Shown here one piece after another: positions 22,727 through 54,876 of a stretch of 64,000 nucleotides of DNA; positions within the stretch are counted from its first letter, which is position 1, and each line of letters begins with the position of its first letter. Made by a program: the position numbers and the translations under genes. The DNA lies in IMG/VR virus record IMGVR_UViG_3300036971_000130; one strand, given 5' to 3'. Source of the stretch: a virus. Its lineage: Duplodnaviria; Caudoviricetes. The notes under the pieces were generated by a model, which saw only the letters and a list, made by a program, of their open reading frames with translations, ran no database searches and was not told where the DNA came from.

Positions 22727-22950
22727 TCAAGTACCTGGGATCGAAGCGTCGCCTGGTCAACGTGATCGGTGCTGCCGCTGAAGGATCTTCGACGGCCCTC
22801 GATCTGTTCACGGGGACGACAAGGGTCGCCCAGCAGTTCAAGAAGCAGGGGATCGAAACAACCGCATGTGACATCGCCACCTACTCGGAGATGTTCGGGC
22901 GGTGCTACTCGGACCATTTCGTCGGTGAGCCGCCAATAGTTCTATTGTGA
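22723..22950 (+). pseudogene. adenine DNA methylase (D12 class), N-terminal fragment
   Basis: IKYLGSKRRL, DLFTGTTRV; no DPPY domain; ends at the next promoter. Confidence 0.8.
22930..22946 (+). promoter_or_regulatory. GCC-AATAGT-T promoter, copy 1
   Basis: ccgccAATAGTtctatt; motif shared with 29624, 31240, 52531. Confidence 0.7.
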
Positions 22951-22974
22951 CGACCACCAGGACGAGGTGCTGAG

Positions 22975-24111
22975 ATGCCGCAGGTACGAGGAACGGATAT
23001 CGGGCTGGTTCGTCCGGGCGTGAGCGGTGGAGCTTTCGCCCCTGGGATGAAGGCCGACGGTCAGGTCGGCAACCTCGGAGGGCCATCGACGATCTACGTG
23101 ACCGACCCGGCCAAGATCAGCGACCTCATGGACTTCGAGCACGTCATCGTCGTCGACAACAACGGTGCCACGGACTACGACGGTCAGGACCCGAGGTTCC
23201 CGAACATCTACGCCCCCGAGGTCTACGGGGACGAGTTCTCAGACCCGGACTGGGAGCCAGTCACCGGCTACAGCAACCAGTACAGCTACAGCGGTCCGCT
23301 CATGCATCCGTCGGAGTTCATCGGCAGGGGAATGGGGGCGAGCATCCTCGATGAGCCTGGCGTTTACGTCACCGTCGTCGTGGAGTGCGACGGCTCCGAA
23401 TGCGACCCAGATGTCCATGACGAAGGTGGCTGCGATGCTGACGGCTGGATGCTCCTTCGCCACAAGAGGTACGGCGATGTGTCGCCGGAGGTGGCCGAGT
23501 TGATCGGCCCGGACGCATACGACCTCGAAGGTCAGTACGAGAAGCTCACGGAGCTTCGGGACTCCATCTTGGTCGACGCTCGCACCAACGAGGATCGGGC
23601 GATGCGCCAGGAGGCGTACTATCACGTCGTGGACAACACCGCTCGGATGTTCGCTCGCTACAACCTCGACTGCGACAGCCGTCTTCTTGCCGCCAGGGCT
23701 GCAATCACCGACCCGGCGGTCGTGCAGAAGCAAGCCGAGGTGGCAGCGGGCAAGGAAACTCTCCGTGCGATCAGGATGGCTGGCTCCGATGACGAAGCAA
23801 GGGACATCGCTCTGCGTCACGGACTGCTCCACCCATCTGCCGTAGCTGGCATGTCGAAGAACGAGATCGTCGACAGGGCAGAAGCATCTCTCGCATCGTC
23901 CAGGGACCCCGAGTCGTACCGTGAAGCCCTCGCTTCGATCATCGACCCAGTCGAGCGTCCTGGCTCTCCCCGCAAGGGTGACAGGGCGGCCTTCTTGTCC
24001 GGATACCAGCCTGTATGGGCAAGCGTCAGCGACGAAGACCACAGCAGTCTGAGTGAAGCTGTCCGTGCTCTCCCGATCGACGTGTTCGTTCGTCTGACGG
24101 AGGATCACTGA
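22975..24111 (+). CDS. hypothetical protein with conserved N-terminal tag (paralog A)
   Basis: GLVRPGVSGGAFAP; contains GYSNQYSYSGPLMHPSEFIG. Confidence 0.8.
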   Translation: MPQVRGTDIGLVRPGVSGGAFAPGMKADGQVGNLGGPSTIYVTDPAKISDLMDFEHVIVVDNNGATDYDGQDPRFPNIYAPEVYGDEFSDPDWEPVTGYSNQYSYSGPLMHPSEFIGRGMGASILDEPGVYVTVVVECDGSECDPDVHDEGGCDADGWMLLRHKRYGDVSPEVAELIGPDAYDLEGQYEKLTELRDSILVDARTNEDRAMRQEAYYHVVDNTARMFARYNLDCDSRLLAARAAITDPAVVQKQAEVAAGKETLRAIRMAGSDDEARDIALRHGLLHPSAVAGMSKNEIVDRAEASLASSRDPESYREALASIIDPVERPGSPRKGDRAAFLSGYQPVWASVSDEDHSSLSEAVRALPIDVFVRLTEDH

Positions 24112-24112
24112 G

Positions 24113-24880
24113 ATGCCACCGATCAGAGGTAAGGATGTCGGGCTCGTCAGGCCCGGCGTGAGCGGGGGTGCGTTCGCCCCAACCGGCCACGGCTTCGGCC
24201 CCGTCCCCGATCTCGGCAACCATGACCCTGAACACGTCAGGATCGTTGCTCTCTTGCAGCCCGGTTACATGGTTGTCGTCTCGGACGTCTTCACCGGCGG
24301 GTACGGCCAGGGCAACGAAGATCCCCGGTTCGTCGGTGCCTTCGTCCCCACAGCCGAGAACGGCAGTGTCCACGATGAGGACTGGAAGGTCGTAGCCGAC
24401 TTGGTCGGTTCCGACGGCATCACCGATCGGGTGACCGACGAGATGAGGGCGAACCCCGGCCTCTACGCTCTGACCGAGAGCTTCAACAACCTCGGTGTCG
24501 AGGGATACGTCCTGGTCCGCCATGAGCGTTACAGGAACATCTCGCCGGAAGCAGCCGAGATCCTCGGACCGGACAATCACTACCGACCAGACCAGTACAA
24601 GTTGATCGAGAATCTCGCCGGACGGGATGACCCTGCTGGCCGAGAAGCGCACGACCAGGCGGTCAAGGACGCTGTCCGGATGATCGAGTCGGACATCCCG
24701 GATGCTGCTTCCCGAATCCGTGCAGCCGTGGATGCCATCGACAATCCGGGCATGGTTCGTAGACTTCGGGCCGCATCCGAAGCTCGGAAGATCATCTCGA
24801 AGGTGCAGTCCACTTCCGATCTGGAAGATGCAGCGGGTGTCGCTCGTGACTACGGACTCTCCCAGCACGACACGGAATGA
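24113..24880 (+). CDS. paralog B, N-terminal part (probably frameshift-split)
   Basis: GLVRPGVSGGAFAP; LVRHERY aligns with LLRHKRY of paralog A. Confidence 0.75.
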   Translation: MPPIRGKDVGLVRPGVSGGAFAPTGHGFGPVPDLGNHDPEHVRIVALLQPGYMVVVSDVFTGGYGQGNEDPRFVGAFVPTAENGSVHDEDWKVVADLVGSDGITDRVTDEMRANPGLYALTESFNNLGVEGYVLVRHERYRNISPEAAEILGPDNHYRPDQYKLIENLAGRDDPAGREAHDQAVKDAVRMIESDIPDAASRIRAAVDAIDNPGMVRRLRAASEARKIISKVQSTSDLEDAAGVARDYGLSQHDTE

Positions 24881-25119
24881 ACCACGACGAGGTGGTCCGG
24901 TTGGTCGTGAGGGAAGCTGAGTCAAGGGACAACCCGGAGAGGGCAGATCACATTCTCGCCATCTCCGTCAGTGAAATCCTCGAACCGGGATCTGGGTCCG
25001 GCTACACGAGGTACCGATCGACTGTCGGTCTGATCGACGAGGTTGACGACAAGCAACTCAGCCAAGAGGTGAAGAAGATGCCGACTTCGGTGTTCCGCAA
25101 GATGATGGAGGGTGATTGA
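24877..25119 (+). CDS. paralog B, C-terminal part
   Basis: LSQEVKKMPTSVFRKM aligns with the C-termini of paralogs A and C. Confidence 0.65.
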   Translation: MNHDEVVRLVVREAESRDNPERADHILAISVSEILEPGSGSGYTRYRSTVGLIDEVDDKQLSQEVKKMPTSVFRKMMEGD

Positions 25120-25120
25120 G

Positions 25121-26137
25121 ATGGCTCAGGTACGAGGCAACGAGGTTGGTCTGGTCCGACCGGGCGTGAGTGGTGGCGCTTTCGCTCCGGGGATGAAGGC
25201 CGACGGTCAGGTCGGTGATCTCACGACCGGTGTGAAGGACCAGGCGACCGACTGGACTGAACTCGAAGCGTTCATGTCCTTCGATCGGGTCGTGGTCAGG
25301 AACTCGGATGGCTCTCTTACCGAGTACGACGGGGAGGATGCCAGGTTCCCCGACCTCGAAGGTCCGTTCGACTACGACCGCTACACCGACGATGACGAGT
25401 TCATCACCGGTCGTGATTGGGTGCCTGTGAGGGTCCCCAATGCGACCTTCGACGGGAGGATGTCCGGCTCTGGCTCCGATCGTGACCAGCACTTCTACGA
25501 ACTCGGAGGGGCGATCCTGGATTCTCCGGCCAACGGGGTCTACGTCCGCATCGCTCTGGCAGGCGACGAATGGATGGTCCTCCGTCACCGCAGTGCTGGC
25601 GTCTACCCCTACGAGGTCACCGAGCTTCTCGGCCCTGAGCCGAAGACGATCGACGAGCACTTCGATCGGGTGAACCGGCTGCCGACCGAGTGGAAGAACA
25701 CCCCGGAGGATGTTGCTGGCAAGCTCGCTGTCGAAGGCGCAGAGCAGGCGATCCTCGATGAGTACCCGAACATCGACTCCGTCTACTGGGACGCCAGAAA
25801 CGGGCTGAACGACCCGTGGTCGACCATGTACCTCCGAGACGTTCAGAACTTCCGTGACGCCGAGGAAGCGGTCGTGATGAAGGCACGAGGTCTGGGTGTC
25901 GATGGCAACATCCGGGGCGGTCTGAACGCTCCCGACCTGGATCTCGACGACGAAGCTGCGGTCTCAGCAGCCATCCACCGCAGGGGTCGTGAGATCCACG
26001 ATCCGAAGGTCATCAGGGCCTTCCAGTCGCTCATGGCCGACCAGATGGACAGCCACGGAGACCATGACGAGGCACACGTCGTCCGACATGCTCCCTACGA
26101 CGTGTTCCGGAAGATCATGCTCTACTCGATGGGCTGA
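25121..26137 (+). CDS. hypothetical protein with conserved N-terminal tag (paralog C)
   Basis: GLVRPGVSGGAFAPGMKADGQVG identical to paralog A. Confidence 0.8.
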   Translation: MAQVRGNEVGLVRPGVSGGAFAPGMKADGQVGDLTTGVKDQATDWTELEAFMSFDRVVVRNSDGSLTEYDGEDARFPDLEGPFDYDRYTDDDEFITGRDWVPVRVPNATFDGRMSGSGSDRDQHFYELGGAILDSPANGVYVRIALAGDEWMVLRHRSAGVYPYEVTELLGPEPKTIDEHFDRVNRLPTEWKNTPEDVAGKLAVEGAEQAILDEYPNIDSVYWDARNGLNDPWSTMYLRDVQNFRDAEEAVVMKARGLGVDGNIRGGLNAPDLDLDDEAAVSAAIHRRGREIHDPKVIRAFQSLMADQMDSHGDHDEAHVVRHAPYDVFRKIMLYSMG

Positions 26138-26150
26138 ATGTCTGATTCTC

Positions 26151-26188
26151 CCATGGCGACAGGCTAGAAGTCACACGTTCAAGTAGAC
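26151..26188 (+). promoter_or_regulatory. CCATGG-N10-GAAGTCACA motif, copy 1
   Basis: ccatgg cgacaggcta gaagtcaca cgttcaa gtagac upstream of the FtsK-like gene. Confidence 0.7.
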
Positions 26189-26204
26189 CGTCTTAGGAGA
26201 TTCC

Positions 26205-28982
26205 GTGGCTACTGAACGTGCATCGTTGCCGATCCCGTCGAACTTCGACCCTGAAGTCCACATGGCTGCACTTCAGGAGCACGTCCTGAAGACGGCTGGT
26301 GAAGGCTGGAAGATCACGACCGTCGACATCGAGAACCACAAGGTGATGATCGAGCGTCCGTCCTCGGTCACGATGACCGACAAGGGCACCGGGCAGCAGC
26401 GCAAGGCCACGCTTCAGGAAGGCGTTAAGAAGACCGACGCCGAGAAGTGGAACGCCATCTTCGCAGCCGACAACCCCGGCTACTACATGGTCTCCTTCGA
26501 CCCTCATAACCGCCAGGCGATCTTGGAGCAGATGTCCCCGGAAGCTCACCGGTGCCGTCAGTCCATCGCCAACGCCCTCGGGGTGAAGGAGTGGGAGGTC
26601 TACATCCGGCAGCGCAAGGACGGCTTCGAGTTCAAGCTCCCGCCGAACTACGTACCGTCGAAGCACCTCGACAAGATCACCGAGGTCGCCCACGACGTGA
26701 TCGGCAACATCGGTTGGCGTGTCGTGGTCAACGCCGAGAAGTTGCAGGGTCGGTTCATCATCGGTGATCCGCCGATCTTCCCGAACATGATCCCGTACCC
26801 CTTCCCGAAGGAGGCTTGGCCCTTCGATCCGAAGGGCAACTGGGCGAGCCACGGCGTCGGCCACGTCCTCGGTGGCGAGGAATTCTCCATCGACTTCAGC
26901 GCCACCCCTCACGTCGCCGTCGCCGGTACCTCCGGTGGTGGTAAGTGGCAGCCATCGCACACTCCGATCCCGGTGCCGGTCTCGGAGAAGTTCCGGAGCG
27001 GATGGGCGACGATGGGTGAGATCGAGCCAGGTGACTACGTCTTCGACCAGTTCGGCGTTCCGACGCTGGTGATCGCCAAGACCCCCGAGACCGAGCACGA
27101 GATCATCGAGGTGTCTCTCGACGATGGTCAGGTCATCGAGGTCTCCGAAGGCCACCTGTGGCGTGTCAGCACCCAGAAGGACCGGATCAACGAACTCGAC
27201 AGGGTGATGGCTCTCCGAGGCCACAACCCGACCGCCGAAGCCATCAAGCTCGTCGGCTACGGCCACCAGATGATCGAGGCGTCCCACGAGTTCGCCGGGC
27301 GATGCCTGGACGGAACCCTCGACGATCTCGTCTCGGCGCTGCCGGACGAGATCCAGCCGATCGCCCTCGAAGCTCTCAGCGGCTCCGAGTTGGACAACGA
27401 TGGCGTTGTGTCCGTGTCCGAGTGCCTCTGGACGGTCGGCACCTACCTGACGAGGACGATCCCGAACGGTGACGAGAAGACCCGTGTCGTCTCGACCAAG
27501 AACCTCTCCCCGTCGATGGGCCACGCCATCCGCCTTCCTCGTGAGGCGCTCGGCAAGCGTGCGGTGCAAGTCCCGAGCGTCTTCGAGATCAAGTCCTGGC
27601 TCTCCGCCGGGAACCTGTCCGAGAACCCCGTTCACGGCATCTACGACCGTTCCGAGATTCTCGACTCGATCGTGGCGTCCTACCGCAAGGCCACGTCCGA
27701 CGGTTCGATGATTCTGGTGTTCGAGACCGCTGAGATCGCCAGGGACGTTGTCCGCTTCGTCCGTTCTCTCGGTCGGAAGGCTCTCGTTCAGGACTGCACG
27801 GTCGAGATCGTCCAGCCACAGACCGTCGAGAGCAACACGACGATGCGAGGCCCGGTTCTCAGCCGCACCTCCGTCGGAGCTTCCTCGGCAACTCACCTCC
27901 ACATCACCGACGTTCACGCCACCGGACGCACTGCCTCCGGTCACTGCATCATGGTCGCCAACCCGTCCGGCGTCTACCTGACCAACGACTACGTGCCGAC
28001 CCACAACTCCATCCTGGTGCAGTCGCTCATCGTCTCGGCCCTCACGAAGCAGTGGGGCCTCGTCATCGTCGACCCGGTCAAGGGTGGTGTCGACTTCGCC
28101 CCGTTCCAGCAGTACGTCCGTGACAGCGGATGGGGCTGTGAGTCCCTCGAAGAAGCGGTCACCGCTCTCGACATCGTCTACCAGGAGGGCGTCAAGCGGA
28201 AGAAGATGGTCAAGGACGCCGGGGTCCAGAAGTGGTCTGAGCTTCCGCTCTCCCTCGGCATCCGTCCGATCCTGGTCGTGACCGATGAGGTCTCGTCCAT
28301 GCTCATCCCGGAGACGGTTCCGAAGCTTCCGAAGGACGACCCCATGGTGATCGAGGTCACCAACCGCAACGCCTGCAAGTCCAAGATCGGCATTCTCATG
28401 GGCAAGATCGCCCGTGAGCTTCGATTCGTCGGAGTCCACCTCGTCGTGTCCTCCCAGGTCTCCCAGTCCGCAACCGGTGTCTCCACCGAGCTTCGATCGA
28501 ACCTCGGTACCAAGCTCCTGCTCGGCGTGAACCCGACCGACGGCACCCGTGCCCTGTCGCTCAACAACAAGGACGCTGTCCCGAAGGTCCCGCAGCACAT
28601 CGCTGAGGACAAGGTGATGAACCGTGGTGTCGGTGTTTTCGAGCGTGAAGGCACGCCGCCGGTCGGCGTGATGAAGGGCTACTTCGCCAGCATGGACGAC
28701 TTCACGAACTTCCTCGTGTCCATCGGCACGAAGAAGACGGCTGTGCCACGCCCCAGTGCCCGTGAGATCCAGAGGTCGTCTCCTGGTGGCATCTCGTCGA
28801 TGGACGAGGACTACAGTGGAGGCGGGGACGATGAGCCGCCGACCAGAACGTCCGGCTCCAAGCCGATCATGGCTTCGGTGTCCGCCCCGAAGCCCGAGGC
28901 CCTTGCACGTCCAGCCGAAGTCTGCTCGACTTGCGACGGCCCCATCAACCCGCTAACCGGTGAGTGCAACTGCTCAATCTAA
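26205..28982 (+). CDS. FtsK/SpoIIIE-family ATPase (possible coupling protein or DNA translocase), intein-containing
   Basis: PHVAVAGTSGGGK|S Walker A, DPVKG, VVTDE Walker B, RELRFVGVH; C-terminal CxxC..CxC. Confidence 0.88.
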   Translation: MATERASLPIPSNFDPEVHMAALQEHVLKTAGEGWKITTVDIENHKVMIERPSSVTMTDKGTGQQRKATLQEGVKKTDAEKWNAIFAADNPGYYMVSFDPHNRQAILEQMSPEAHRCRQSIANALGVKEWEVYIRQRKDGFEFKLPPNYVPSKHLDKITEVAHDVIGNIGWRVVVNAEKLQGRFIIGDPPIFPNMIPYPFPKEAWPFDPKGNWASHGVGHVLGGEEFSIDFSATPHVAVAGTSGGGKWQPSHTPIPVPVSEKFRSGWATMGEIEPGDYVFDQFGVPTLVIAKTPETEHEIIEVSLDDGQVIEVSEGHLWRVSTQKDRINELDRVMALRGHNPTAEAIKLVGYGHQMIEASHEFAGRCLDGTLDDLVSALPDEIQPIALEALSGSELDNDGVVSVSECLWTVGTYLTRTIPNGDEKTRVVSTKNLSPSMGHAIRLPREALGKRAVQVPSVFEIKSWLSAGNLSENPVHGIYDRSEILDSIVASYRKATSDGSMILVFETAEIARDVVRFVRSLGRKALVQDCTVEIVQPQTVESNTTMRGPVLSRTSVGASSATHLHITDVHATGRTASGHCIMVANPSGVYLTNDYVPTHNSILVQSLIVSALTKQWGLVIVDPVKGGVDFAPFQQYVRDSGWGCESLEEAVTALDIVYQEGVKRKKMVKDAGVQKWSELPLSLGIRPILVVTDEVSSMLIPETVPKLPKDDPMVIEVTNRNACKSKIGILMGKIARELRFVGVHLVVSSQVSQSATGVSTELRSNLGTKLLLGVNPTDGTRALSLNNKDAVPKVPQHIAEDKVMNRGVGVFEREGTPPVGVMKGYFASMDDFTNFLVSIGTKKTAVPRPSAREIQRSSPGGISSMDEDYSGGGDDEPPTRTSGSKPIMASVSAPKPEALARPAEVCSTCDGPINPLTGECNCSI
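26946..28007 (+). mobile_element. intein, 354 aa, class-3-like (WCT), Trp at position 1, degenerate LAGLIDADG
   Basis: inserted GK|S; block B EGHLW, block F HCIMV, block G PTHN|S. Confidence 0.85.
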
Positions 28983-29042
28983 CCATGGACCGAGCGTCTG
29001 TGTGTAGAGATACCGGATAGCCACAACTCCACAGGAGAACCC

Positions 29043-29618
29043 ATGTTCATCGCAGCCGAAGACATCAACGCCATCGAGGATCACCCGAAGGGTGGGCTCT
29101 GGCCGTTCATCGTCGCCTTCTCCGACCACATCTACGCCGGTGATGACCGGACCGAACTCATGGGGCTCGTCTACGACGCCCTGGTGGTCGACTCGGTCGC
29201 CTACGGTGACAAGACCGTCGACGAGGCGTTCGAGGCACGCTATGACGTGTCCCTGTTCGCTGCCCAGGCGGTCCAGACGGCCGCTCTGGTCGCCGCAGCC
29301 GAGGCCGACGTGTTCGACCCCGTCGAGTGGGCTGGTGATCCGGTCAAGGACCAGCAGATGCAGGCGTTGTTCGCTCCGAGGACCGACGTGTTCGAGGGCA
29401 CCTGGGACTCGGACGTTCCGCTGACCATCGTCTCGGCCCACTACGCCCCCTTCACGCAGGTTCCGCTTCCCGAGGGCGAGAACGTCATCTGCATCGACCC
29501 TCGCAACGACGAGACGATGCTGAACACCCTCGCCGCAGTCGGCCTCATCGAGTTCTTCGAGCACGAAGACCTCGATGCCGTCTATGACCAGAGCGACCTC
29601 GACGAACCCGGCGAGTAG
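29043..29618 (+). CDS. acidic hypothetical protein
   Basis: SD AGGAG, strong codon bias. Confidence 0.8.
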   Translation: MFIAAEDINAIEDHPKGGLWPFIVAFSDHIYAGDDRTELMGLVYDALVVDSVAYGDKTVDEAFEARYDVSLFAAQAVQTAALVAAAEADVFDPVEWAGDPVKDQQMQALFAPRTDVFEGTWDSDVPLTIVSAHYAPFTQVPLPEGENVICIDPRNDETMLNTLAAVGLIEFFEHEDLDAVYDQSDLDEPGE

Positions 29619-29635
29619 CCTCCAATAGTTCTCAC
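29619..29635 (+). promoter_or_regulatory. GCC-AATAGT-T promoter, copy 2 (leaderless)
   Basis: cctccAATAGTtctcacATG. Confidence 0.7.
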
Positions 29636-31051
29636 ATGGGAACTGATCCGAACCTCGAAGGCCGACGCCGTGGAAACGGCGAGTTCGGCAACGCTGAACA
29701 CGCCGACGGCAACCGACCGAACCTTCTCGGACCTGGTGAAGTCGCCTGTTCCGACTGTGGCACGCCGACGAAGCGGACCTCTGGTCTCTGCCGGAAGTGC
29801 GACCCCGCTCGGAAGAAGGGTGGGGCAGCAGCGGCGACCCCCACGAGGGCTCAGAAGCAGCCGAAGAAGTCGGCCATCGTCGATGACTCCAAGCCGTCCC
29901 TGACCCCCGATCAGGTCAAGCAGTGCGAGTACGGGAACGTCCCTGTCGTACGTCGTGGAGCGATCGTCGAGGGCCAGGTCCACCGGTGCAAGCTGGCGAC
30001 CACCGGAGAGTTCTGCCACCGCCACGGAGGCACATCTGGTGAGTCACTCGGTCGCACCTACGCCAAGGCGATGGCCGAGGCCGAACGAGGCCAGTGCTTC
30101 CCGCTGAAGGACGAGCACTGGGAGCAGACCGAGGAACGGATCGAGCTTGCCGCCGCCGACCTCGTCAACATGCTCGACACCGACTTCAGCGAAAGCATGA
30201 AGGCGATCCTGGCGTTCGCCCATGCCAAGCGCACGAGTGGGAGCGGGCGCTTCTCATACAACAACCAGATGTACATGGTGGTGCAGTACGTCCACCGTGA
30301 GCGCAGGAAGGGCACCGACGAGAGCGAAGCCTGGGATCGGGCGATCGAAGCCTTCTCCGAGCCGCACCACACGAAGAAGGACTGGGAGAAGCTCGGCCGC
30401 ACCGTGAACGATGACGCCCTCGGTGTCGGTGTCGTGTGGACCACGTCGGCACGGATCAAGGAAGAAGAAGACCCGAACGACCCGACGGCTGACCCTGTGC
30501 AGACCTTCATCGGGTCCAAGGTCGGGTACCTCAACCAGTTCCCGCTCTCGGAGACCGAAGGTGAGCCGTTCGACCTTCCCGAGTACCCCGAGTTCGCCAA
30601 CACCCCTGAAGGTCACGGCGACCCGGAAGCTGCCATCGACTCGTTCGTCGACCTCGCCCACGACCTCGGCGTCGAAGTCGAGTTCTCCGACAAGCCCGTC
30701 TACGTCGGGGCGAAGAAGGTCGACGGCTACATGGATGCCGGGGCTAAGAAGATCGTGGTCGACTCCACGGTCGCCGGTGGCCGTGCATACTCCGCTCTGA
30801 CGCTGGCTCACGAACTCTCGCACTTCTGGCTCGAACACGGCACGGACGGCCAGAAGGAAACCACGGTGAAGGACCAGGAGCTTGCCGCTGAGTCGGCCGC
30901 TCACCTCATGTGTCTCCACCACGGGATCGACACATCGGACATGTCCTCCCGCTACCTCTCAGGCCACAGCCGAGGCTACCGGGAGACCGGACTTGGGCCG
31001 TTCCGTTCCGCCCTGAAGCTGTTCGACGACTACCTGACCGCCATCGACTGA
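29636..31051 (+). CDS. ArdC-like antirestriction protein (ssDNA-binding + HExxH peptidase-like) with Zn ribbons
   Basis: FSYNNQ, WEKLGRTV, LAHELSH, ELAAESAA, SSRYL. Confidence 0.8.
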   Translation: MGTDPNLEGRRRGNGEFGNAEHADGNRPNLLGPGEVACSDCGTPTKRTSGLCRKCDPARKKGGAAAATPTRAQKQPKKSAIVDDSKPSLTPDQVKQCEYGNVPVVRRGAIVEGQVHRCKLATTGEFCHRHGGTSGESLGRTYAKAMAEAERGQCFPLKDEHWEQTEERIELAAADLVNMLDTDFSESMKAILAFAHAKRTSGSGRFSYNNQMYMVVQYVHRERRKGTDESEAWDRAIEAFSEPHHTKKDWEKLGRTVNDDALGVGVVWTTSARIKEEEDPNDPTADPVQTFIGSKVGYLNQFPLSETEGEPFDLPEYPEFANTPEGHGDPEAAIDSFVDLAHDLGVEVEFSDKPVYVGAKKVDGYMDAGAKKIVVDSTVAGGRAYSALTLAHELSHFWLEHGTDGQKETTVKDQELAAESAAHLMCLHHGIDTSDMSSRYLSGHSRGYRETGLGPFRSALKLFDDYLTAID

Positions 31052-31210: not shown

Positions 31211-31234
31211 GAAGCTGACACAGCTTCTCGATCG

Positions 31235-31251
31235 CCGCCAATAGTTCAGGT
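31235..31251 (+). promoter_or_regulatory. GCC-AATAGT-T promoter, copy 3 (leaderless)
   Basis: ccgccAATAGTtcaggtATG. Confidence 0.7.
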
Positions 31252-33213
31252 ATGGCAAAGCACACCACTCGACGCAGGGACAACGGCAAGGTCGGAAACG
31301 GCGGCATGTTCGATAAGAACATGTACGGGTTCGGCAAGCTCGACGTTCTCACCACCGACGAGCTTGCTGCACGTCGCAAGCAGTTGGAGGACCGGGGCTA
31401 CGTTCCCGCTGTGTCGTCCTCGACCAGCCTCGACCCGACCAGCACCAAGCACCTCCGTGCCTGGTGGGACGAGAAGTTCGTGACCGCCGAAGTCGGAGGG
31501 GCGAAGGGCTCCTACGCCGTCATGCCCGACGACTACACGCCCGGCATGACCTCCGGCGAGGCCCTCTCCGGCCACCGTCGCACCCACCGCATGCTGTACG
31601 AGGGTGCTGGCGTCAAGCTTCGGATGCCGTCGGCCACGTCCATCAGGAAGTTCTCGAAGGAGAACGGTGATGGCCGCACCTTCGACGTTCCCGTCTCCGC
31701 CGAGTACGACGGCGGCACCGTGCAGGGCATGGTCCGTGTCACCCGTGTCGGCAAGGAGTACCACGTCGACGGTCTCGGCTTCTCCGACGCCGCCAACGAG
31801 CAGGTCGCTGAGGCTGTCTCGGCCGTCCTCGGTTCCCGCCGGGTGACCACCGCCCTGGCTCACGCTGGCAACCTGGCCGAGCGTCGTCGTGCTCGCATCG
31901 CCGACGAGGGCACCGCTCTCGTCGACCCCAAGTCCTCCTGGATCGAGGGCATGGGCTACGAGGACGACCAGGGCATGATGGTGATGACCACGAAGCCACA
32001 GTCCCGGAAGGACGGAACTCAGAGTGAGGTTCGTCAGTACGGCTTCAGGGTCTCTCGTGCCACCTTCGAGGCCGTCATCGGCAATGAACGTCCCGGAGCC
32101 GCATTCAACGAACTGGTCAAGGGACAGGCCGCCCGCATCGGCGTCTCCAAGTGCGACAAGTGCGCTCGCTTCATGCCCGCCGACGGCTCGAACCACGTCT
32201 GCCCGACCGTCGAGTCCGACCGCCTCACCACGCCGACCGCAGCCAACCGTCTCTACGAGCAGGCTGCCCGTGCACGCCTCGCATCCTACGAGGATGCGAG
32301 CACTCCCGAGGTCAAGAACCCGACCGCTGACGAGGCCGCTGCGGCTCTTGCATCGGTCCCGGAGGCCGACTCCTTCCACGTTCACGAGGACGGGACGAAG
32401 GAGTGGAGGGACGCTGACGGCCAGCCGATCAAGGTCGATGGAACCCCTTCCTTCGATGAGGCCGACCGTGCTGTCGCTGAGGCGGCTGCCGCTTCCAGGA
32501 TGGCCGAGATCGAGGCTGCTGACCGCATCGCCGCAGCGAAGAAGGCCGGTGACGAGGCGAAGGCCACCGTCGCCGCTCGTGAGCGCAAGGAGCGCCAGGA
32601 GAAGCGGACTGCCGAGCGTGCTGCGAAGGAAGCCGCTGAGGCTGCCCGTCACCCCGCTCGTGTGGCTGCCCACACCTTGATCGGCCCTCAGGCTGGCGAC
32701 TCCGACCCGAAGCTCATGGTCTCCCTCGCCGGAGGCACCCCGCTGGCAGGAGCCACGGTCCACGGTCGTCGAGGGTTCATCACCGACTCGATCGGAGTTC
32801 TCGGACCGCACTCTGGCGCTCAGTACGGCCAGGTGCAGCAGCCGAGCAGCGGAATCCTCACGGTCGACGGCATCCCCAACGACGAGGCAAGCCGCCTGCT
32901 CGACACGCTTCCCGCAGGGAACCTGGACGCCTCGCTGAACGCCGCTCCGACGGCCCGTCAGTTCCTCACCGCCGCCCGCAACAGCGGTGGCAAGATCGAG
33001 GTCGGTGGCGTTGTCGTCATGCCGAACATGCGTCACGAGGGGTTCTACCCCGACACCGCCACCGTCTACGCTGAGACCGAGGCGGAGGCCCGTGAGATCA
33101 TCGGGTTCTCCCTCCCCGATGCTCGTCCGAGCGACGTGGTCACCGGGTTCACCGAGACCCCGTGGCGTCCGGGCGAGACCGCCTACCAGTTCGTCTGGAC
33201 TGCGAAGGACTGA
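31252..33213 (+). CDS. multidomain protein with KTSC-like domain and Zn ribbon
   Basis: SSWIEGMGY..YGF.V....FE......PGAAFNELVKG; CDKC..HVC. Confidence 0.75.
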   Translation: MAKHTTRRRDNGKVGNGGMFDKNMYGFGKLDVLTTDELAARRKQLEDRGYVPAVSSSTSLDPTSTKHLRAWWDEKFVTAEVGGAKGSYAVMPDDYTPGMTSGEALSGHRRTHRMLYEGAGVKLRMPSATSIRKFSKENGDGRTFDVPVSAEYDGGTVQGMVRVTRVGKEYHVDGLGFSDAANEQVAEAVSAVLGSRRVTTALAHAGNLAERRRARIADEGTALVDPKSSWIEGMGYEDDQGMMVMTTKPQSRKDGTQSEVRQYGFRVSRATFEAVIGNERPGAAFNELVKGQAARIGVSKCDKCARFMPADGSNHVCPTVESDRLTTPTAANRLYEQAARARLASYEDASTPEVKNPTADEAAAALASVPEADSFHVHEDGTKEWRDADGQPIKVDGTPSFDEADRAVAEAAAASRMAEIEAADRIAAAKKAGDEAKATVAARERKERQEKRTAERAAKEAAEAARHPARVAAHTLIGPQAGDSDPKLMVSLAGGTPLAGATVHGRRGFITDSIGVLGPHSGAQYGQVQQPSSGILTVDGIPNDEASRLLDTLPAGNLDASLNAAPTARQFLTAARNSGGKIEVGGVVVMPNMRHEGFYPDTATVYAETEAEAREIIGFSLPDARPSDVVTGFTETPWRPGETAYQFVWTAKD

Positions 33214-44300: not shown

Positions 44301-47300
44301 GTCGGACGGCAGCGGCCGGGAACGATCCGGTTTTGACCACCATTGTCGCCGGGGTCGAACGGTGGGGTGCAGCCGTTCGGGACATCGAAGACGATGACGT
44401 ACTCACCGGGAGCGAGGTCGTGGAAGTAGTAGTTGCCGTTGGCGTCGGTCACCATCGAGGTGACGACGGAGCCATCGGGACGGGTGAGCCAGACGGTGGC
44501 ACCTTCGATGCCGGGCTCGCCGTCATCCTGGATGCCGTTGGCGTTGATGTCTTCCCACACGAGGTTGCCGACCGAAGCGGTCTGGTACATGCCGAGGTCG
44601 ATCGTCATGTTGTGGGTGTTCTCGGGGAGCGTCACGTTGGAGGTGAGACCGTTCGAGTCGTTCGCCGGGTCGCCACCAACACCAGACGGGGAGACCGTCC
44701 AGCCGGAGGGACGAACGAAGTTCACCGTGTAGGCACCGGGAGCCAGATTGTCGAACAGGTAGGCACCGTTGGCATCGGTCGTCGTCGTTGCGACAGTGAG
44801 GCCATCACGGACCAGGTTGACGGTGACGTTCGGGATTCCGACCTCACCGGCGTTCTGGACACCGTTGCCGTTGACATCGTTCCAGACGAAGTCACCGATG
44901 GACGACGGACGGTAGAGGCCGAGGTCGATCGTCGGGTTGTTGTTGCCGTTGATCGTCACCGTCGAGGTGAGACCGTTGGAGTCGACCGAACGATCGGTGC
45001 CGACAGCCGTCGGGGATGCGACGTAGCCGGACGGAGCGGTGAAGGTGACGGTGTAGTCGCCAGCCGGGAGGTTCGTGAACGAGTAGGCACCGTTGGCGTC
45101 GGTCGTGCGGGTCTCGCTGTAGCCGTTCGGGCCGGTAGCGGTGACCGTGACACCGGAGATGTTCGGCTCCCCGGCATCCTGGATGCCGTTGGCGTTCACG
45201 TCGTGCCAGACCCGGTCACCGATGGAGCCGGGGACCCAGAGGCCGAGGTCGATCGACATGTTGGCTTCGCCGTTGCCGATCTCGACGGTCGTGGTGAGGC
45301 CGTTCGAGTCAGCTTCACGATCGGTCCCAACGGCCGTCGGAGACAGCGTGTAGCCGGACGGCATCACGAAGGTGACGGTGTACTCGCCGGGAGTGAGGTC
45401 GTAGAAGCCGTAGACGCCTGTGGCGTCAGTGGTGGTCGTGGCGGTGACCCCACCGGGGCCAGCCAGGTTCACGGTCACACCAGCGATGCCGGGCTCACCG
45501 GCGTCCTGGATGCCGTTGGCGTTGAGGTCGTTCCAGACGAGGTCACCGACAGCGGCGGTCTGGTAGAAGCCAGCGTCGATGGTCAGGTTCGTGTCGTTGA
45601 CCTCGGTGCCGGTGATGGTCACCGGGGCGTTGCCACCAACCGGGTTGGAGTCGACAGCACGATCGGAACCGACAGCCGAAGGCGAAGGGACGTGACCAGC
45701 GGGGGTCACGAACTGGACCGTGTAGGAGCCGATGCGGAGGTTCTCGAACAGGTAGTTGCCGTTGGCGTCGGTCGTCGTCGTGGCGATGACCGCACCGGTC
45801 GAGTTCAGCAGGCGGACGGTGGCGTTCGGGATGCCGTTCTCGCCAGCGTCCTGGATGCCGTCACGGTCGTCGTCGTACCAGACACGGTCACCGAGCGAGA
45901 AGGCACGGATGACCACGGTCACGTCGTTCGACCGGATCGGGAGGATCGGTCCGTCGGTACCGTTCCGGATCGAGCCACCGACATCGTTCGTGTAGATGTC
46001 GCCAGCAGCGTTGCCAGCCGTCGTCATCTGAACGGTGTAGGTCCGGGTCTCGCCGGAGCCGAGAGCGTTCGAGTCCTTGATGCGGACAGCGGTGACGGCA
46101 CCCCAGTTGGTGATGCCAGCGGCAGCGACCCAGGTGGTCGATCCGCCGGTCTGGTTGGAGGCAGCCAGCGGGTTGTAGGAGATCGAGGCCGGGGCGGCGG
46201 TCGTGTACTGGTAGGTGCGACCAGCGACAGCGGTGAGCGGCCCGGAGAGTCCGACGGTGCCGGAGAAGTCCGAGGCAGGTTCACGGTCGACGGAGTCGTC
46301 GCCGTTCCACGGGAGAATGTCGATCACGTCGATGGCGGCGATCGTGGTCTCACCCTGGTTGGTGAGGATCAGGTCCCACGGGATCGTCGAGTTCGGGTAG
46401 TTGATCGCCGGAGCGGAGGTGCCCTTGGTGATGTTCAGTTCGTAGCGACCGACACGGAACGAGACGGCCTGCGTGTCGACCATCGGGTTCTGGGCGTCGG
46501 TTGCGCCGGTCGGCTGGACGATGCCTCCACCGACGACACGAGCGGTGTTGGTCCAGGAACCACCCGGCGTTGCGACGCCGACCTTGGCCCTGGCCGTGAA
46601 CTCGATCTTGACGATCGAGTTGTTCGGGATCTTCGGGAGGGTCCAGACACGGTGGTTGGATGCGTTCAGGGTCGGCTCGATGTTCGAGGTCACGCCGTTG
46701 ATGGTGACGACCGACGAACCAGCCTGGTAGTTGAACGGGGACGAGGTCTGGCTGACCGACTCATCTCGGACCTGAAGGCCGGAGATGTTGCCGCCGGAGA
46801 TGCCGGAGGTGTCGACATCGAGGCAGAACTGGACGGGAGCGCCGACAGCGATCTCTGGGGTTCCGGTCTCGCCACAGACGGTCTTGTCGAAGGCTGCGAC
46901 AGCGTTCGTGGTGATGATCCGGTCACCGGAGCGGGAGTCACCGGTGTTGGCGGGGACGTTGTAGATGTCTGCCTTTCCATCGGGAGCGGTGTTCGTACCA
47001 ATCCAGTAGGAGTCGTAGGCGTTCAGGTTGGTGTTACGGGTGAAGCCGTTGATACCGAGCGCCGTGTTGCCGTAGAAGCCGTTGGAGGAAGCGTTCCAGA
47101 AGCCGAGGACGGTTCCGTTGGTGTAGGAGCCGATGGTGAACGGGACACGGAGAGCGAGGACGATGGTCCGGTTCTCGTTGGTGGTCGCCGTGACAGCCGG
47201 GCGCATGTCGCCCCACGCACGAACGGCGTTGAACGTTGCCGGACGGGTGTCGGACCACGTTGCGTCGGAGTCGTCGCACTGGGTGGTGGCCGAGATGCCC

Positions 47301-48814: not shown

Positions 48815-48918
48815 GTGTTCCCTTGGTGGATGATCCGTCATCGGAGACCGATCGTGTGACACTAGTACGTTTGCGTGGCGATGTCACCACACTCTGTCAA
48901 AATTCTCTCAGGTTGCTC

Positions 48919-50684: not shown

Positions 50685-50782
50685 CGTACTCCTGGTGGTC
50701 GGGACGGCCTACCCAACCATCATGGGTTGGCGAAGAACCCCTCCGAGGAAGGGTGCCGGTCCGTCAGTTCACCAGGAACCTA

Positions 50783-51664
50783 TCAGCCGGGGGTGACACT
50801 CCCAAGCGGCTCGCCGTAATTGTCGAACTCGGGCATCTCTCCGTAGCGGTGGAGAGGGAAGCTGTCACCGTCACGCTTCTTACGCCAGACCGTCGGGATA
50901 CTCACCTCGGTGAATCCGTGCTTGGTCATGGTCCCACGGCGCTTGGGGGACGGTGTAATCCATCTCACCGAATCGCCGTCATCGTCCTTGACGCACCACT
51001 TCGATCCGTACTGCGTCGACACCATCCGGATGTCATCTCGGACCTGCCCAGTTTCGAGATCGACGAGGTAGGTCTTGTCGTAGCTGAAGTACCTGTCGTC
51101 GGATTCGATGATCCCCAGCGAGCATTCCTCGCAGGTGCAGCCACCGAGGTACTTCGTCGGGTGGCCGTGAGGTGCAACGAACGCACAGTCCTCGCAGGTG
51201 CAGCCGTACTCCAACCGAGAAAGCGTTCCGTGTTCACCGTACTCAGCGGTGATCGCTGCTTCACGAGCTTCCGTCTCGGCGTCCCACTTCCTCCGACGGG
51301 CTTCAGCTTCGTCGAGTCGACGGGCGGCACGCCAGTCTCGCCAGTGCCGAGCGAGTTCCTCCCTGTTCATTCCGACTCGCTCGGCGCAGTCGGACCCGAT
51401 GTCATGGACCGTTCCCGTCTTCGTGTCCTCGACGACGTAGCAGTTGATGATGGCGGTGCCACAGTTCGCACAGGTACCGCCCGGTTGGACCGGAGCGTCA
51501 GGGGCAGCCTGGAACACCTTGCGGGTGAAGCCCTTGATCTTGCACTGCGACAGCCAAGGGAGCGTCGACCCGAGGTCGACATCGGACTTCGAGTGCTCGA
51601 CCGTCCCGAACTGGCCGTCGTTGCCAGCCTCTCCGGTGTGCTTCTTGCGGATCTTCTCGCTCAC
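50783..51664 (-). CDS. hypothetical Cys-rich protein with N-terminal tag
   Basis: GTG start at TAGTG overlap; KKHTGEAGNDGQFGTVEH; CANCG..IGSDCA; two GCTCxxC. Confidence 0.75.
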   Translation of the reverse strand: MSEKIRKKHTGEAGNDGQFGTVEHSKSDVDLGSTLPWLSQCKIKGFTRKVFQAAPDAPVQPGGTCANCGTAIINCYVVEDTKTGTVHDIGSDCAERVGMNREELARHWRDWRAARRLDEAEARRRKWDAETEAREAAITAEYGEHGTLSRLEYGCTCEDCAFVAPHGHPTKYLGGCTCEECSLGIIESDDRYFSYDKTYLVDLETGQVRDDIRMVSTQYGSKWCVKDDDGDSVRWITPSPKRRGTMTKHGFTEVSIPTVWRKKRDGDSFPLHRYGEMPEFDNYGEPLGSVTPG

Positions 51665-52524
51665 TACGACCTCGTCACGCTGTCGATGCCGTCGAAGAAC
51701 ATCTTGGCGAACCAGCGAACAGGTCGGAGAGACGACCTGAAGGCCCGCTCCTTCCACATGTCTCGGCGGTTCTGCTTGGCCTGCTTCTCAGCTTCGATGT
51801 TCCGCTCCCGGAACGCCCGGTCCTGGTCCACTAGCTTCTGCTCGTTCACCTGGTGGCGTTCGAGGTGCCGCTGCATCGCTTCGACAGCGTTCGAGTCGAT
51901 GTAGGGGTCGCCGTAGTCGTCGACGCTCGTGACGATGTACCCGCTCCATCCAGCGGCCCTGGCCTTGTTGTGGAGGTCGATGATGCCGGGGAGGTTCCGG
52001 GCTGGGACCATCTGCGACTTCCGAGGCGAGTCGATCAACTGGTCCGGGTTGTTGTCCTCGATGTGGTGAAGGGACCGGATGATGTAGTCCCGGTTCTCGT
52101 CACCTCGGTCGTAGAAGTCGTCGTCAGCGAGAGGTCGGACCGGGAACCCGTCCTCAGGCTCGACCAGCGGAGCCCTCTGCTCCATGTCGGCCAGCAGTGC
52201 TTCTCTCGCTCGGTCCGCCCGAGCCCAGTCGGGTTCGTTCGGGTAGTCGTCTGCGGTGATGTCGCTGACACCATCCCAGAGGTCTCCTTCTGGTGCGGAG
52301 CGATCCAGCCACTCCCCGAACTCGGGGTCGTCCATGAGGATGTCGTCGTAGTTGTCGTCGTCGTCGTCGGTGAGGTCGCTGGTGAGGTCGAGTTCGGGTC
52401 CTCGACCGAAGTCCGTCCTGTCGAACCGGCCACGGTCTCGGTTCTGGCTGTGGCTGTGATGAGCGTCGCCGTGATGGCGGCTACCATCCTGCGGAGGTCG
52501 GAACGAGGGGGAGAATCCAGGCAT
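51664..52524 (-). CDS. acidic hypothetical protein with N-terminal tag-like motif
   Basis: QNRDRGRFDRTDFGRGPELDL. Confidence 0.75.
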   Translation of the reverse strand: MPGFSPSFRPPQDGSRHHGDAHHSHSQNRDRGRFDRTDFGRGPELDLTSDLTDDDDDNYDDILMDDPEFGEWLDRSAPEGDLWDGVSDITADDYPNEPDWARADRAREALLADMEQRAPLVEPEDGFPVRPLADDDFYDRGDENRDYIIRSLHHIEDNNPDQLIDSPRKSQMVPARNLPGIIDLHNKARAAGWSGYIVTSVDDYGDPYIDSNAVEAMQRHLERHQVNEQKLVDQDRAFRERNIEAEKQAKQNRRDMWKERAFRSSLRPVRWFAKMFFDGIDSVTRS

Positions 52525-52541
52525 ACTCCAACTATTGGCGG
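52525..52541 (-). promoter_or_regulatory. GCC-AATAGT-T promoter, copy 4 (leaderless)
   Basis: reverse complement reads ccgccAATAGTtggagtATG. Confidence 0.7.
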
Positions 52542-52607
52542 CTGGCTGGTCAACCCGCCACCCATGATGATCTGGAAGTACTCACCCGAATAGGACATTC
52601 CACCCAA

Positions 52608-53371: not shown

Positions 53372-53583
53372 TCCTCCACGTCGTTGTCAGCCCCCTCCGG
53401 TAAGGTGGCGGCAACAACTACGGATGAGGGGATCATCACCATGAGAGAGCGTTGCTCTGTCTTTTTCAACACCAAGATCATGTACGAGTACCACCCGGTG
53501 ATCGTGCGCCAACGTCGTCGGGCCCGTCTGGCTGCGGCGGCGATGATCGCTTCCAAGTCAACGAGCGTGTAGTATGGGTGGGT

Positions 53584-53886
53584 ATGTCCGATCACCCCAT
53601 CACACGGACCGTCTACCGACACACCGTCGACCACCTCTCAGGTGATCGTTCGGCCAAAGGCCGATGCCTCGAAGTGCTCCGGTTCTTCGGTCATGGGGAA
53701 GCCACGTTCGAGGCCATCTGCGCCGCCGTCCTCCAAGCACGGAACGCTGCTGTCGATGCCAGCCCGCTCTACGAGGGGCCTTCGACGCTCATGCTCTCGA
53801 TCTCACGTTTCGAGCGTGAGACGATGAAGCAGCAGATGTCCGTCGATGCCGTCTGCTCGTTCCTGACTCGACTCGCACCAGCCTGA
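53584..53886 (+). CDS. hypothetical protein
   Basis: MSDHP start within ORF 53452..53886. Confidence 0.5.
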   Translation: MSDHPITRTVYRHTVDHLSGDRSAKGRCLEVLRFFGHGEATFEAICAAVLQARNAAVDASPLYEGPSTLMLSISRFERETMKQQMSVDAVCSFLTRLAPA

Positions 53887-53925
53887 CCTCTACCGATCCG
53901 TCAGTCGACGGGCTACGCTGAGGAC

Positions 53926-54123
53926 ATGCCAGCCACACCACAGCAACACAAGGTCAGGCAGGATCGTCCCCTCGGCGTCATGTTCCGTGCCTGCACAAGA
54001 TGCAAGGAAGTGAAGCGGACGAGGACCGACTTCAGATGGATGCCCGGCCGGGTCAGGTTCCACCCGTGGTGCCTGCGGTGTGAAGCAGACCGTCGGAAGT
54101 TCAGGTCACACCGGAAGCAGTAG
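53926..54123 (+). CDS. small Zn-finger protein
   Basis: CTRC..F..CLRC. Confidence 0.55.
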   Translation: MPATPQQHKVRQDRPLGVMFRACTRCKEVKRTRTDFRWMPGRVRFHPWCLRCEADRRKFRSHRKQ

Positions 54124-54354
54124 CTTCGGTTCGTCGCCAGGCCAGTAGATGTCTTCGCAAGGCCACGGGCGAGGCTCGTTGCCGTCGAAGGACACCCATG
54201 CCTTCGGGAACCCACCCTTCATCGTGACCGCCGTCGAATCGCCAGAGCGATGCTTCTGCGGCACCTCAGCGACGACAGCAAGGTGGTGGACACCTGAAGC
54301 GTCCACCACCACGATCACGTCATCGACAGATAGCCGTCCCCAGCCGAAGCGCAT
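54106..54354 (-). CDS. hypothetical protein
   Basis: follows the 54358 ORF on the same strand. Confidence 0.55.
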   Translation of the reverse strand: MRFGWGRLSVDDVIVVVDASGVHHLAVVAEVPQKHRSGDSTAVTMKGGFPKAWVSFDGNEPRPWPCEDIYWPGDEPKLLLPV

Positions 54355-54357
54355 CGG

Positions 54358-54876
54358 TCAGTGGTCAAGCCAATCGGGAACCATCTCACTCGGCCCCCAA
54401 CCGATGAAGGAAGGCTCGTTCTGAACGTCCCACCATTCGAGAGCGTCGTACGGGGTGAAGACCCGGTCCGGCTCACCGACCTTGGATGGGAACGGAACCG
54501 GGTACGCCCGCATCCGACGCTTGTCTTCTTCGGTGAGAATGTCCTCGTGACGAAGCATCATCTCGCATCGAGCAAGCATCCGGGCTTCCTCGGAGATGAT
54601 GTTGTCCGGACCACCGAGGCGTGCGGTGACCACGTCGATCACGTCGTCGGGAACATCGACCGTGGTCCAGAACCCGACGTATTCCTCCACCGACCGGAAG
54701 TGGGGAGGGTAGACGAAACTCCCCTTCTCGACCGGCATCCGGAGGTTGTCCATCGGCTCGTGGTAGTTGGCGGTGAACTGACCGCCCTGGGGTGTTCCTG
54801 CCGCCAGACGGGCACGTCGAGCGCCAGGGGTCGTCGCCTCCCGGACGAACCGGGCAAACTTCTGTCCAAAGTTCAC
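54358..54876 (-). CDS. hypothetical protein with N-terminal GGQF tag
   Basis: ARLAAGTPQGGQFTANYHEP. Confidence 0.75.
   Translation of the reverse strand: MNFGQKFARFVREATTPGARRARLAAGTPQGGQFTANYHEPMDNLRMPVEKGSFVYPPHFRSVEEYVGFWTTVDVPDDVIDVVTARLGGPDNIISEEARMLARCEMMLRHEDILTEEDKRRMRAYPVPFPSKVGEPDRVFTPYDALEWWDVQNEPSFIGWGPSEMVPDWLDH

Follow-up and report, generated by a model that had tools for sequence, protein, structure and literature searches.

One N-terminal tag on many unrelated effector-type proteins of actinobacterial megaplasmids, with its core in phage polyvalent proteins: a possible address peptide

Why do proteins with unrelated bodies begin with a similar short peptide? This question is raised by a 64,000-nucleotide stretch of DNA from IMG/VR virus record IMGVR_UViG_3300036971_000130 (GC content ~62%), which is referred to here as the window and comes from a giant, plasmid-like element of actinobacterial type. 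In a first-pass annotation, made from the sequence alone, eight of its proteins were described as carrying such a peptide, which was proposed to sort a co-regulated cargo set for delivery into a new host. One machine can serve many cargoes, since cells and viruses route proteins by common address peptides. To our knowledge, the transfer systems of high-GC Gram-positive megaplasmids, whether FtsK-type or uncharacterised, have no known address peptide. We found that the peptide is real and under selection, that it stands as a portable tag at the N-termini of unrelated proteins and that it goes with a promoter class of its own, so that this part of the sorting proposal can be kept. The address role is what we infer from it: with a probability of about one half, effector-type modules carry the tag as a portable address or docking signal and either travel with mobile DNA or go to work as soon as it has entered a cell.

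All eight peptides are present at the gene starts exactly as first quoted and lie within the first ~45 residues (genes are named by their start position). The starts of 52524, 51664 and 54876 were the same in an independent gene calling on the same DNA. The consensus given in the first-pass annotation, [RK]-x(1-8)-G-x-F-x4-[HKYF], picks exactly the eight tagged N-termini and renders the real motif only loosely. It was found in 8 of 65 N-terminal segments of 55 residues versus 3 of 271 internal segments (Fisher p = 1.4e-4), a post hoc and circular comparison, as the pattern was taken from its own matches. Moreover, none of 2000 N-terminus shuffles reached eight matches. A looser form, [RK]x1-10GxF, is enriched only ~2-fold at N-termini.

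Three of the tagged proteins are paralogues encoded in one unit on the plus strand: 22975 (22975..24111, 378 residues, tag at residues ~5-33, RGTDIGLVRPGVSGGAFAPGMKADGQVGNL; no Pfam, NCBIfam or PHROG family), 24113 (24113..24880, 255 residues) and 25121 (25121..26137, 338 residues), with an untagged 80-residue gene in between (24877..25119, +). Their bodies are 28-38% identical and their tags ~85%, the latter being a manual count. Beyond this trio the eight bodies show no mutual similarity at E<1e-4. Pfam and NCBIfam scans of the eight matched no family, the PHROGs scan matched only 29636, and weakly, and more than one recognisable domain was seen in none of them.

The protein 29636 (29636..31051, +, 471 residues) carries its tag at residues 9-33 (GRRRGNGEFGNAEHADGNRPNLLG) and has a Zn-ribbon-like CxxC pair and a metallopeptidase-like C-terminus. 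Its label as ArdC-like in the first-pass annotation did not hold. ArdC proteins combine an ssDNA-binding ArdC-N domain with a C-terminal zincin metallopeptidase, whereas in 29636 neither ArdC-N nor any other Pfam family was found and the only match, a weak one, is to the metalloprotease family phrog_87 (residues 338-420, 4.8e-5). One member of the tagged set, most likely an orthologue of 29636, gave a weak match to MPTase-PolyVal at 8e-4. The orthologue at L008:2410-3915 has the canonical tag at the same position with 18 bits. The KTSC label given to 31252 (31252..33213, +, 653 residues, tag at residues 6-33, TRRRDNGKVGNGGMFDKNMYGFGKLDVL) was confirmed by fold. This is the core tagged family, present in 28 loci, and at least 25 of 29 orthologues carry the canonical tag at the same position. 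A separate feature of 31252, at residues ~85-340 before the KTSC domain, is an invariant block, MPDDYTP...GG.ALSGHRRTHRM...MPSATSIKRF, together with a CxxC...HxC knuckle; the block has no family or fold match. Given the universal place of the family by the FtsK-like motor described below, a core role in DNA processing, or one as a pilot protein, is conceivable.

The remaining three tagged genes lie on the minus strand: the acidic 52524 (51664..52524, 286 residues, tag at residues 27-47, NRDRGRFDRTDFGRGPELDL), the Cys-rich 51664 (50783..51664, 293 residues, tag at residues 6-31, RKKHTGEAGNDGQFGTVEHSKSDVDL) and 54876 (54358..54876, 172 residues, tag at residues 19-45, ARRARLAAGTPQGGQFTANYHEPMDNL). 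The related loci that were compared yielded no orthologue of 52524, 51664, 54876 or any of the three paralogues.

Does the tag occur outside the window? Exact copies of window proteins were found by protein look-ups on metagenome contigs of up to 233 kb, and megablast of the window region against deposited plasmids and phages gave no near match. At the protein level, the relatives are Micrococcales megaplasmids of 150-600 kb (Pseudarthrobacter pACHL01, Arthrobacter, Curtobacterium, Glaciihabitans) and a further 23 loci in Actinomycetota genomes, part of them chromosomal. Nine matching megaplasmids in PLSDB are all typed as 'non-mobilizable' by MOB-suite. In these relatives the tag is an N-terminal module of ~30-37 residues with the pattern (F/W-D/N-E-S-x-H)-P-R-x(2-8)-G-[QKRE]-[FW]-A-x3-H-x-E-x-x-V-x-L, which appears in the profile as R-x-P-x-G-x-P-x-G-G-Q-F-A...H-x-E-x-x-V-x-L or in the short form H-P-R-x3-G-K-F. 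Nearly all homologues of 31252 start with (Q)PR-x3-G-xPxGG-[QR]-[FWY]...E...L or the shorter R-D-x2-G-K-F. The complete Glaciihabitans plasmid encodes at least nine different proteins that start M-T-x-F-x-E-x-x-H-P-R-x2-4-G-K-F-x-D-K-x-Q-S-A-P-E-x-x-L, nine of its tags score at least 8 bits, and the Arg stands at residue 10-11 in every one. The metagenome locus L009 has the tag on 9 of its 18 genes.

An independent profile was built from 48 tags of other elements and contains no window sequence. It gave 93 matches of at least 8 bits in ~0.65 Mb of six-frame translation versus 3 in the reversed sequences. Of these, 91 lie no more than 25 residues from an in-frame start (median relative position in the open frame 0.10), and the 89 tagged proteins obtained from the scan fall into 52 body families. 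In the window, the top two six-frame segments were the tags of 54876 (11.3 bits) and 51664 (10.5 bits), with E ~1e-4 in a space of 64 proteins and no match at 8 bits in the reversed-sequence control; overall the profile scored them at 11.3-13.4 and 10.5-13.9 bits, respectively. A first profile made from orthologue tags only was weak, yet it already ranked 51664 and 54876 on top. The paralogue tag RG.D[IV]GLVRPGVSGGAFAP resembles RGKDIGITPGEGTPGSFA of the Pseudoclavibacter orthologues of 31252 (loci L031 and L032), and a Curtobacterium paralogue has TRVRKKDNGTPGNGGEFDHD, to be set beside the window form RRRDNGKVGNGGMFDK. The weakest of the eight is 52524, which fails the independent profile and was matched by eye only (RDRGRF...GPELDL versus GKF..K..SAPEV.L). 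As judged from these sequences, the window holds a divergent dialect of the real tag, with 52524 as its least certain member.

Three narrower searches added little. With tags of 32-33 residues as queries, tblastn returned two to three plasmid records and no phage at E<=10, the query being too short to show absence. A shared-5-mer homologue search with residues 1-40 of a tagged protein yielded two candidates and is uninformative owing to the 5-mer requirement. A DNA pattern for the MTFNE...GKF dialect was too narrow, giving six matches in non-actinobacterial genomes (~2 expected by chance) and none in viral contigs.

In a library of 1.84 billion representative proteins, a profile search gave 1861 matches at E<=1e-3, the best 150 of which were broken down in detail. 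Among these 150, 132 have a single copy at residues 1 to ~37, and 130 of the 132 start with Met; those of at least 120 residues (n=106) fall into 73 body families. Another 14 proteins, 126-2256 residues in length, have 2-7 copies, and 12 of these are long (at least 688 residues) with 3-7 internal copies of the core only, e.g. KYDPNQPRHPAGSPEGGRFA and WDESKHPRxxxGKFA. The remaining four retained at most one stretch at a 5-bit cut-off; among them are P0095 (2503 residues) and P0162 (815 residues), for which the library search had reported 19 and 11 weak stretches, respectively.

Could such an N-terminus arise from composition alone? Gly/Arg-rich N-termini of a high-GC genome could resemble one another by chance, and the looseness of the first consensus, its looser form being only ~2-fold enriched, and the failure of six window tags in the profile would all fit an origin by chance. 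The 93 matches versus 3 in the reversed control, the 1861 library matches and the retention of the tag by orthologues do not. Chance is ruled out for the tag family as a whole. A related proposal, that the region is conserved at the RNA level for leaderless translation, was rejected, as the conserved tag residues are encoded by differing synonymous codons and internal copies occur in long open reading frames. Taken together, we consider an explanation by chance, composition or RNA-level conservation extremely unlikely.

The variation in synonymous codons, together with paralogue tags that are far more alike than the bodies behind them, argues for selection at the protein level. Moreover, tags on unrelated bodies within one element have an identity of 0.45, versus 0.28 for tags on homologous bodies in different elements. 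Tags within an element are thus more alike than those of orthologues, which indicates concerted evolution within elements. Element-specific dialects are found, among them a class with a five-residue insertion. In the structural model of 31252 the tag region is predicted to be disordered (predicted local distance difference test, pLDDT, ~35), as docking motifs are.

A gene for an ADP-ribosylglycohydrolase (21410-22432, -) lies directly upstream of the first tagged unit, and such an enzyme is also encoded (L041:1-703) in a phage locus with a motif-bearing ART polyvalent protein. That the invariant Arg of the tag might be a modification site is pure speculation.

Pfam scans identified those long multi-copy proteins to which they were applied as polyvalent proteins, with the domain combinations and families GNAT+NUDIX, ADPrib_exo_Tox, ART, ART-PolyVal and Phage_Mu_F, and the motif stands 20-110 residues upstream of each domain. 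One polyvalent protein is encoded between phage portal and capsid genes, and the adjacent fusion of Zeta_toxin and Peptidase_S78_2 (prohead-protease family) carries the motif as well. Fic, GNAT, MPTase-PolyVal and Sigma70_r2 domains are found among the bodies of solo tagged proteins. The tag is N-terminal, widespread and co-regulated, and common to polyvalent and phage-head proteins. The idea that the tagged cargo goes to work when it enters a new host gains indirect support, because the core precedes each effector domain of polyvalent proteins, one of these proteins being encoded in a phage head module.

In the portion of its text that was searched, the article by Iyer, Burroughs, Anand, de Souza and Aravind (2017; PMC5512222) describes polyvalent proteins of phages and conjugative elements, proposes ArdC-N as a 'header' and MPTase as a processing enzyme, and does not mention the motif. 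The tagged proteins resemble these polyvalent proteins in several respects: the same core stands before ART, ART-PolyVal, GNAT, NUDIX and MuF domains, the solo tagged bodies come from the same repertoire (MPTase-PolyVal, Fic, GNAT), and both are products of mobile elements with a supposed role soon after arrival in a new host. They differ in that the window proteins are single-bodied, whereas polyvalent chains have 2-15 domains, and in that the header proposed in PMC5512222 is a folded ArdC-N domain.

The position of the motif between polyvalent domains is also what a processing site would show. Polyvalent precursors might be cut there by a protease, such as an MPTase-type zincin, a prohead protease or a host enzyme, and solo tags would be boundary relics of gene splitting. 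The processing role proposed for MPTase domains in PMC5512222, the tagged MPTase-like 29636 in the window and the Peptidase_S78_2 fusion next to the polyvalent protein in the phage locus are in line with this. However, the motif begins 0-10 residues after the Met on solo proteins, where a cut would have little effect, and conservation extends over all 30 residues of the module, E..V.L among them, more than a scissile site would call for. The dedicated promoter and the concerted evolution would also be left unexplained. We therefore regard processing as quite unlikely.

How is the tagged set regulated? According to the first-pass annotation, seven of the eight tagged genes lie in four units headed by an AATAGT promoter, and the box distribution bears this out. 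AATAGT occurs at four sites in the 64 kb on both strands (22935+, 29624+, 31240+ and 52536-), every one as GCC[GT]CCAATAGTT and every one heading a tagged unit. Three of the promoter-like boxes stand 5 nt ahead of the ATG of a tagged gene: GCCTCCAATAGTT at 29618..29630 (+), leaderless, in unit 2, and GCCGCCAATAGTT at 31234..31246 (+) in unit 3 and at 52530..52542 (-) in unit 4. The fourth, GCCGCCAATAGTT at 22929..22941 (+) in unit 1, is 35 nt ahead of the ATG of 22975. A fifth CCAATAGTT-N5-ATG box lies just past the right window edge in the same element, and its gene starts MKTWDEARHPRNVVGEF. The general leaderless box of the window is CCCATGAT-N5-ATG, of the CATGAT class, which precedes ~13 genes. 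None of these is tagged, in agreement with the earlier statement (tagged heads 4/4 for AATAGT versus 0/13 for CCCATGAT, p ~4e-4). The pairing of tag and box is found in other elements with other sequences: the tags of the Glaciihabitans plasmid are paired with their own box GCCGCACAC-N-TA-NNT and those of locus L009 with CCTACA-N7-ATG. Each of these elements thus has a private promoter for its tagged genes, with a sequence that differs from element to element.

The eighth tagged gene had been assigned to a transfer-gene motif, and this is correct: 54876 is coupled to 54873-55982, which is itself headed by the box AAGTCACAGTTTCAAGGTAGC (56010..56034, -). The motif is present three times in the window. 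One copy, AAGTCACACGTTCAAGTAGAC at 26166..26190 (+), precedes the FtsK-like gene 26205, and another precedes 63736. Described as AAGTCACAnnTTC..GTAG, this third box heads the FtsK-like gene, the 55982-54358 unit and a membrane/cell-wall-hydrolase cluster at 56704-63736. In its fuller promoter-like form, AAGTCACA-nn-TTC-n2-4-GTAG, it was noted at 26168, 56032(-) and 63777(-), followed by a leader with a Shine-Dalgarno site. On sequence grounds, three promoter codes seem to be in use in the element, namely CCCATGAT, CCAATAGTT and the GTAG class.

The genes beside the tagged set may indicate what handles it. The untagged 26205 (26205..28982, +, 925 residues) encodes an FtsK/SpoIIIE-like ATPase, which clusters with Glaciihabitans proteins that match Pfam FtsK_SpoIIIE and itself has no Pfam match at E<1e-3; Walker A (GT.GSGKT) and VVDE are kept in the alignment. 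It is a candidate reader or motor for the tag. Next to it lies an untagged small acidic protein of 191 residues (29043..29618, +; ~181 residues in relatives), which is the most widely conserved neighbour of tagged genes (16 of 28 loci). Its AlphaFold2 model has a pLDDT of 87, and fold searches with Foldseek/PDB, VIA wide and ESM-Atlas returned nothing convincing (best Z 3.7). Judging from the model, its fold may be new, and the protein may serve as an adaptor.

Between the window and the whole Glaciihabitans plasmid only four families are common: the tagged KTSC protein, the FtsK-like ATPase, the ~181-residue protein and a protein of ~310-370 residues. The latter is represented in the window by the untagged 369-residue gene that is coupled to 54876 (54873..55982, -). 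In Agromyces L017 these four families form one operon with two tagged genes, the 369-residue homologue lying directly upstream of the FtsK-like gene. The order in the window, 22975-26137, 26205, 29043, 29636 and 31252, is the same in Glaciihabitans and Agromyces. A complex prediction for the Agromyces L017 FtsK-like ATPase, the small protein and a 36-residue tag gave a score of 0.00, which, obtained without controls, weighs neither way.

This tight synteny of tagged genes with the FtsK-like module speaks against another explanation, in which the tag does not serve export and brings each effector module to a conserved hub of the recipient or host, such as the nucleoid, the incoming DNA, RNA polymerase or the ribosome. 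The strong element dialects and the class with the 5-residue insertion are likewise unexpected for a conserved hub or for DNA. Docking to a hub would nevertheless account for the same core in phage-head polyvalent and plasmid proteins, whose delivery machines differ and which have the DNA or the invaded cell in common. One copy per domain suits localisation per module, and a disordered tag with Arg and aromatic anchors is in keeping with it. On balance we consider it rather unlikely.

The private promoter and the private peptide might also point to regulation within the donor, with no transfer at all. The tag would bind an element-encoded chaperone, an anti-sigma-like regulator or a degron adaptor and thereby set stability or timing. 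Candidates for such partners exist in the conserved small acidic neighbour with its unmatched fold and in the MoxR-AAA and VWA/metallopeptidase genes of several elements, and a relative encodes a tagged sigma-like protein. MoxR and DUF2201 are, however, absent from the Glaciihabitans plasmid with its nine tags of at least 8 bits, so they are not universal readers, and the phage-head polyvalent copies would go unexplained. A regulatory handle is thus very unlikely.

Does the tag belong to a known type of signal? No Pfam, NCBIfam or PHROGs model covers it, and a full-text literature search gave no description of the motif. Head-packaged ejection proteins of phages include the T4 internal proteins with a capsid-targeting sequence (CTS), Alt, and proteins of the MuF/SPP1 gp7 type. 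The tag resembles the capsid-targeting sequences as a short N-terminal peptide common to unrelated cargo, and the motif is found on proteins of phage head modules. It differs in that the T4 CTS sequence is unrelated and that cleavage of the tag is only hypothetical; moreover, the 64-kb window showed no gene for a capsid, portal or terminase protein.

Signals of the type IV secretion system (T4SS) are C-terminal, positively charged tails that are read by a VirD4-type coupling protein, and in the type VII secretion system (T7SS) the FtsK/SpoIIIE-family ATPase EccC reads the C-terminal tail of the substrate. The tag has in common with these signals that it is an unstructured peptide on diverse cargo and that its genes adjoin an FtsK/SpoIIIE-family ATPase. 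In contrast, it is N-terminal and lacks a WXG or YxxxD/E hairpin, the nine matching megaplasmids are typed as non-mobilizable, and binding to the ATPase is putative. The more specific proposal that the tag is an export signal read by the FtsK/SpoIIIE-like motor, perhaps via the small acidic protein of novel fold, is an unlikely one. If it were true, 'non-mobilizable' megaplasmids would own a conjugation machine that pumps promoter-defined effectors into the recipient together with the DNA, and phages would have reused the same peptide to load effector modules into heads.

With leaders of the twin-arginine translocation (Tat) and type IV prepilin types the tag has in common that Gly and Phe come after basic residues close to the N-terminus. 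In a Tat signal the twin arginine leads into a hydrophobic h-region and an AxA cleavage site; in a prepilin leader the Gly immediately precedes Phe or Met, and a hydrophobic helix of ~20 residues with Glu at +5 comes next. Both were rejected. The RRR of the tag is followed by a polar, Gly-rich stretch with no hydrophobic run in any of the eight, and NCBIfam found no signal model; likewise, polar residues follow G-x-F, and none of the eight has a hydrophobic or transmembrane segment. A double-glycine bacteriocin leader and a beta-clamp-binding motif were excluded by pattern mismatch. Genuine prepilin-like N-termini are found on other proteins of related plasmids. On the Glaciihabitans plasmid (L006/L007), RCC1-repeat, BspA-LRR and other large proteins have type IV pilin-like hydrophobic N-termini (..AIDLASIMVGVLVIG..), encoded at record coordinates 96419-98020, 112188-113663, 128766-130805 and 137860-139437, with Tad/type IV pilus ATPases and an A24 peptidase adjoining. 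From their sequences, these may be giant minor pilins acting as mating adhesins.

We return to the reading of the tag as an address. A disordered peptide of ~30-37 residues, anchored by Arg, Gly-x-aromatic and the distal E..V.L, is placed in front of effector-type proteins, mostly orphans and not otherwise related, that actinobacterial megaplasmids and integrated elements encode. In this element the leaderless promoter GCCGCCAATAGTT-N5-ATG makes the tagged genes a regulon of their own beside an FtsK/SpoIIIE-like transfer module, and one common partner would handle many cargo proteins through the tag. The cargo would then accompany mobile DNA into a new cell or act jointly just after entry. Such a set would do with separate genes what the modules of phage and plasmid polyvalent proteins do within one chain, where the same core stands ahead of every enzymatic domain.

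Several points weigh against this reading. No reader of the tag was found. The internal copies of polyvalent proteins indicate that the core does not require a free N-terminus, and since one address per polypeptide should suffice while many copies are present, they argue for a function per module such as processing or target docking. Because phage heads and FtsK-type plasmids use different machines, a single machine-specific reader is ruled out for both settings. Recombination within an element, or adaptation to a host factor, could also have made its tags alike. The list of the best 150 matches is biased to N-terminal copies, as the start Met and the C-terminal half of the plasmid-type tag are part of the profile. 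Finally, the six window tags other than those of 51664 and 54876 fail the independent profile with less than 2 bits, and their membership rests on orthology or by-eye likeness, which is weak for 52524.

Further genes of the element were recognised. The window encodes a cell-wall hydrolase of VanY plus GDSL type, an HNH endonuclease, a superfamily-1 helicase, and a DUF2201 metallopeptidase/VWA protein adjoining a MoxR-like ATPase. The region 38393-48862 (-) encodes a secreted SdrD/SpaA-type surface protein of 3489 residues, whose N-terminus is a signal or transmembrane segment and which has 21 SdrD-B/CarboxypepD_reg repeats, SpaA-type prealbumin domains and DUF7507 at its end. The element may use it as an adhesin, in mating or on the surface. 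Between 15386 and 21519, small proteins of ~140-200 residues (15386, 17022, 18111, 20528, 20944 and 16564) have by eye the N-terminal pattern M-F/L-I/V-I/V-x...D-x-W-G-V/R-x-V. They are not linked by BLAST at 1e-4 and may be a very divergent paralogue family. Beyond the right window edge (L042:1-1056, ~65.6-66.7 kb) lies an intein-interrupted DnaE-type DNA polymerase III alpha subunit (PHP, DNA_pol3_alpha, Intein_splicing), an odd plasmid cargo that is also present as DnaE in locus L009.

Overall, more than 1800 protein clusters, mostly orphans, become accessible by sequence through the tag. Paired with a private promoter, it predicts which genes of an element, or which polyvalent modules, make up one functional set. 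If the tag is indeed an address, it would explain how plasmids pre-arm themselves against the defences of the recipient, and it would offer a portable tag for the delivery of proteins between actinobacteria.

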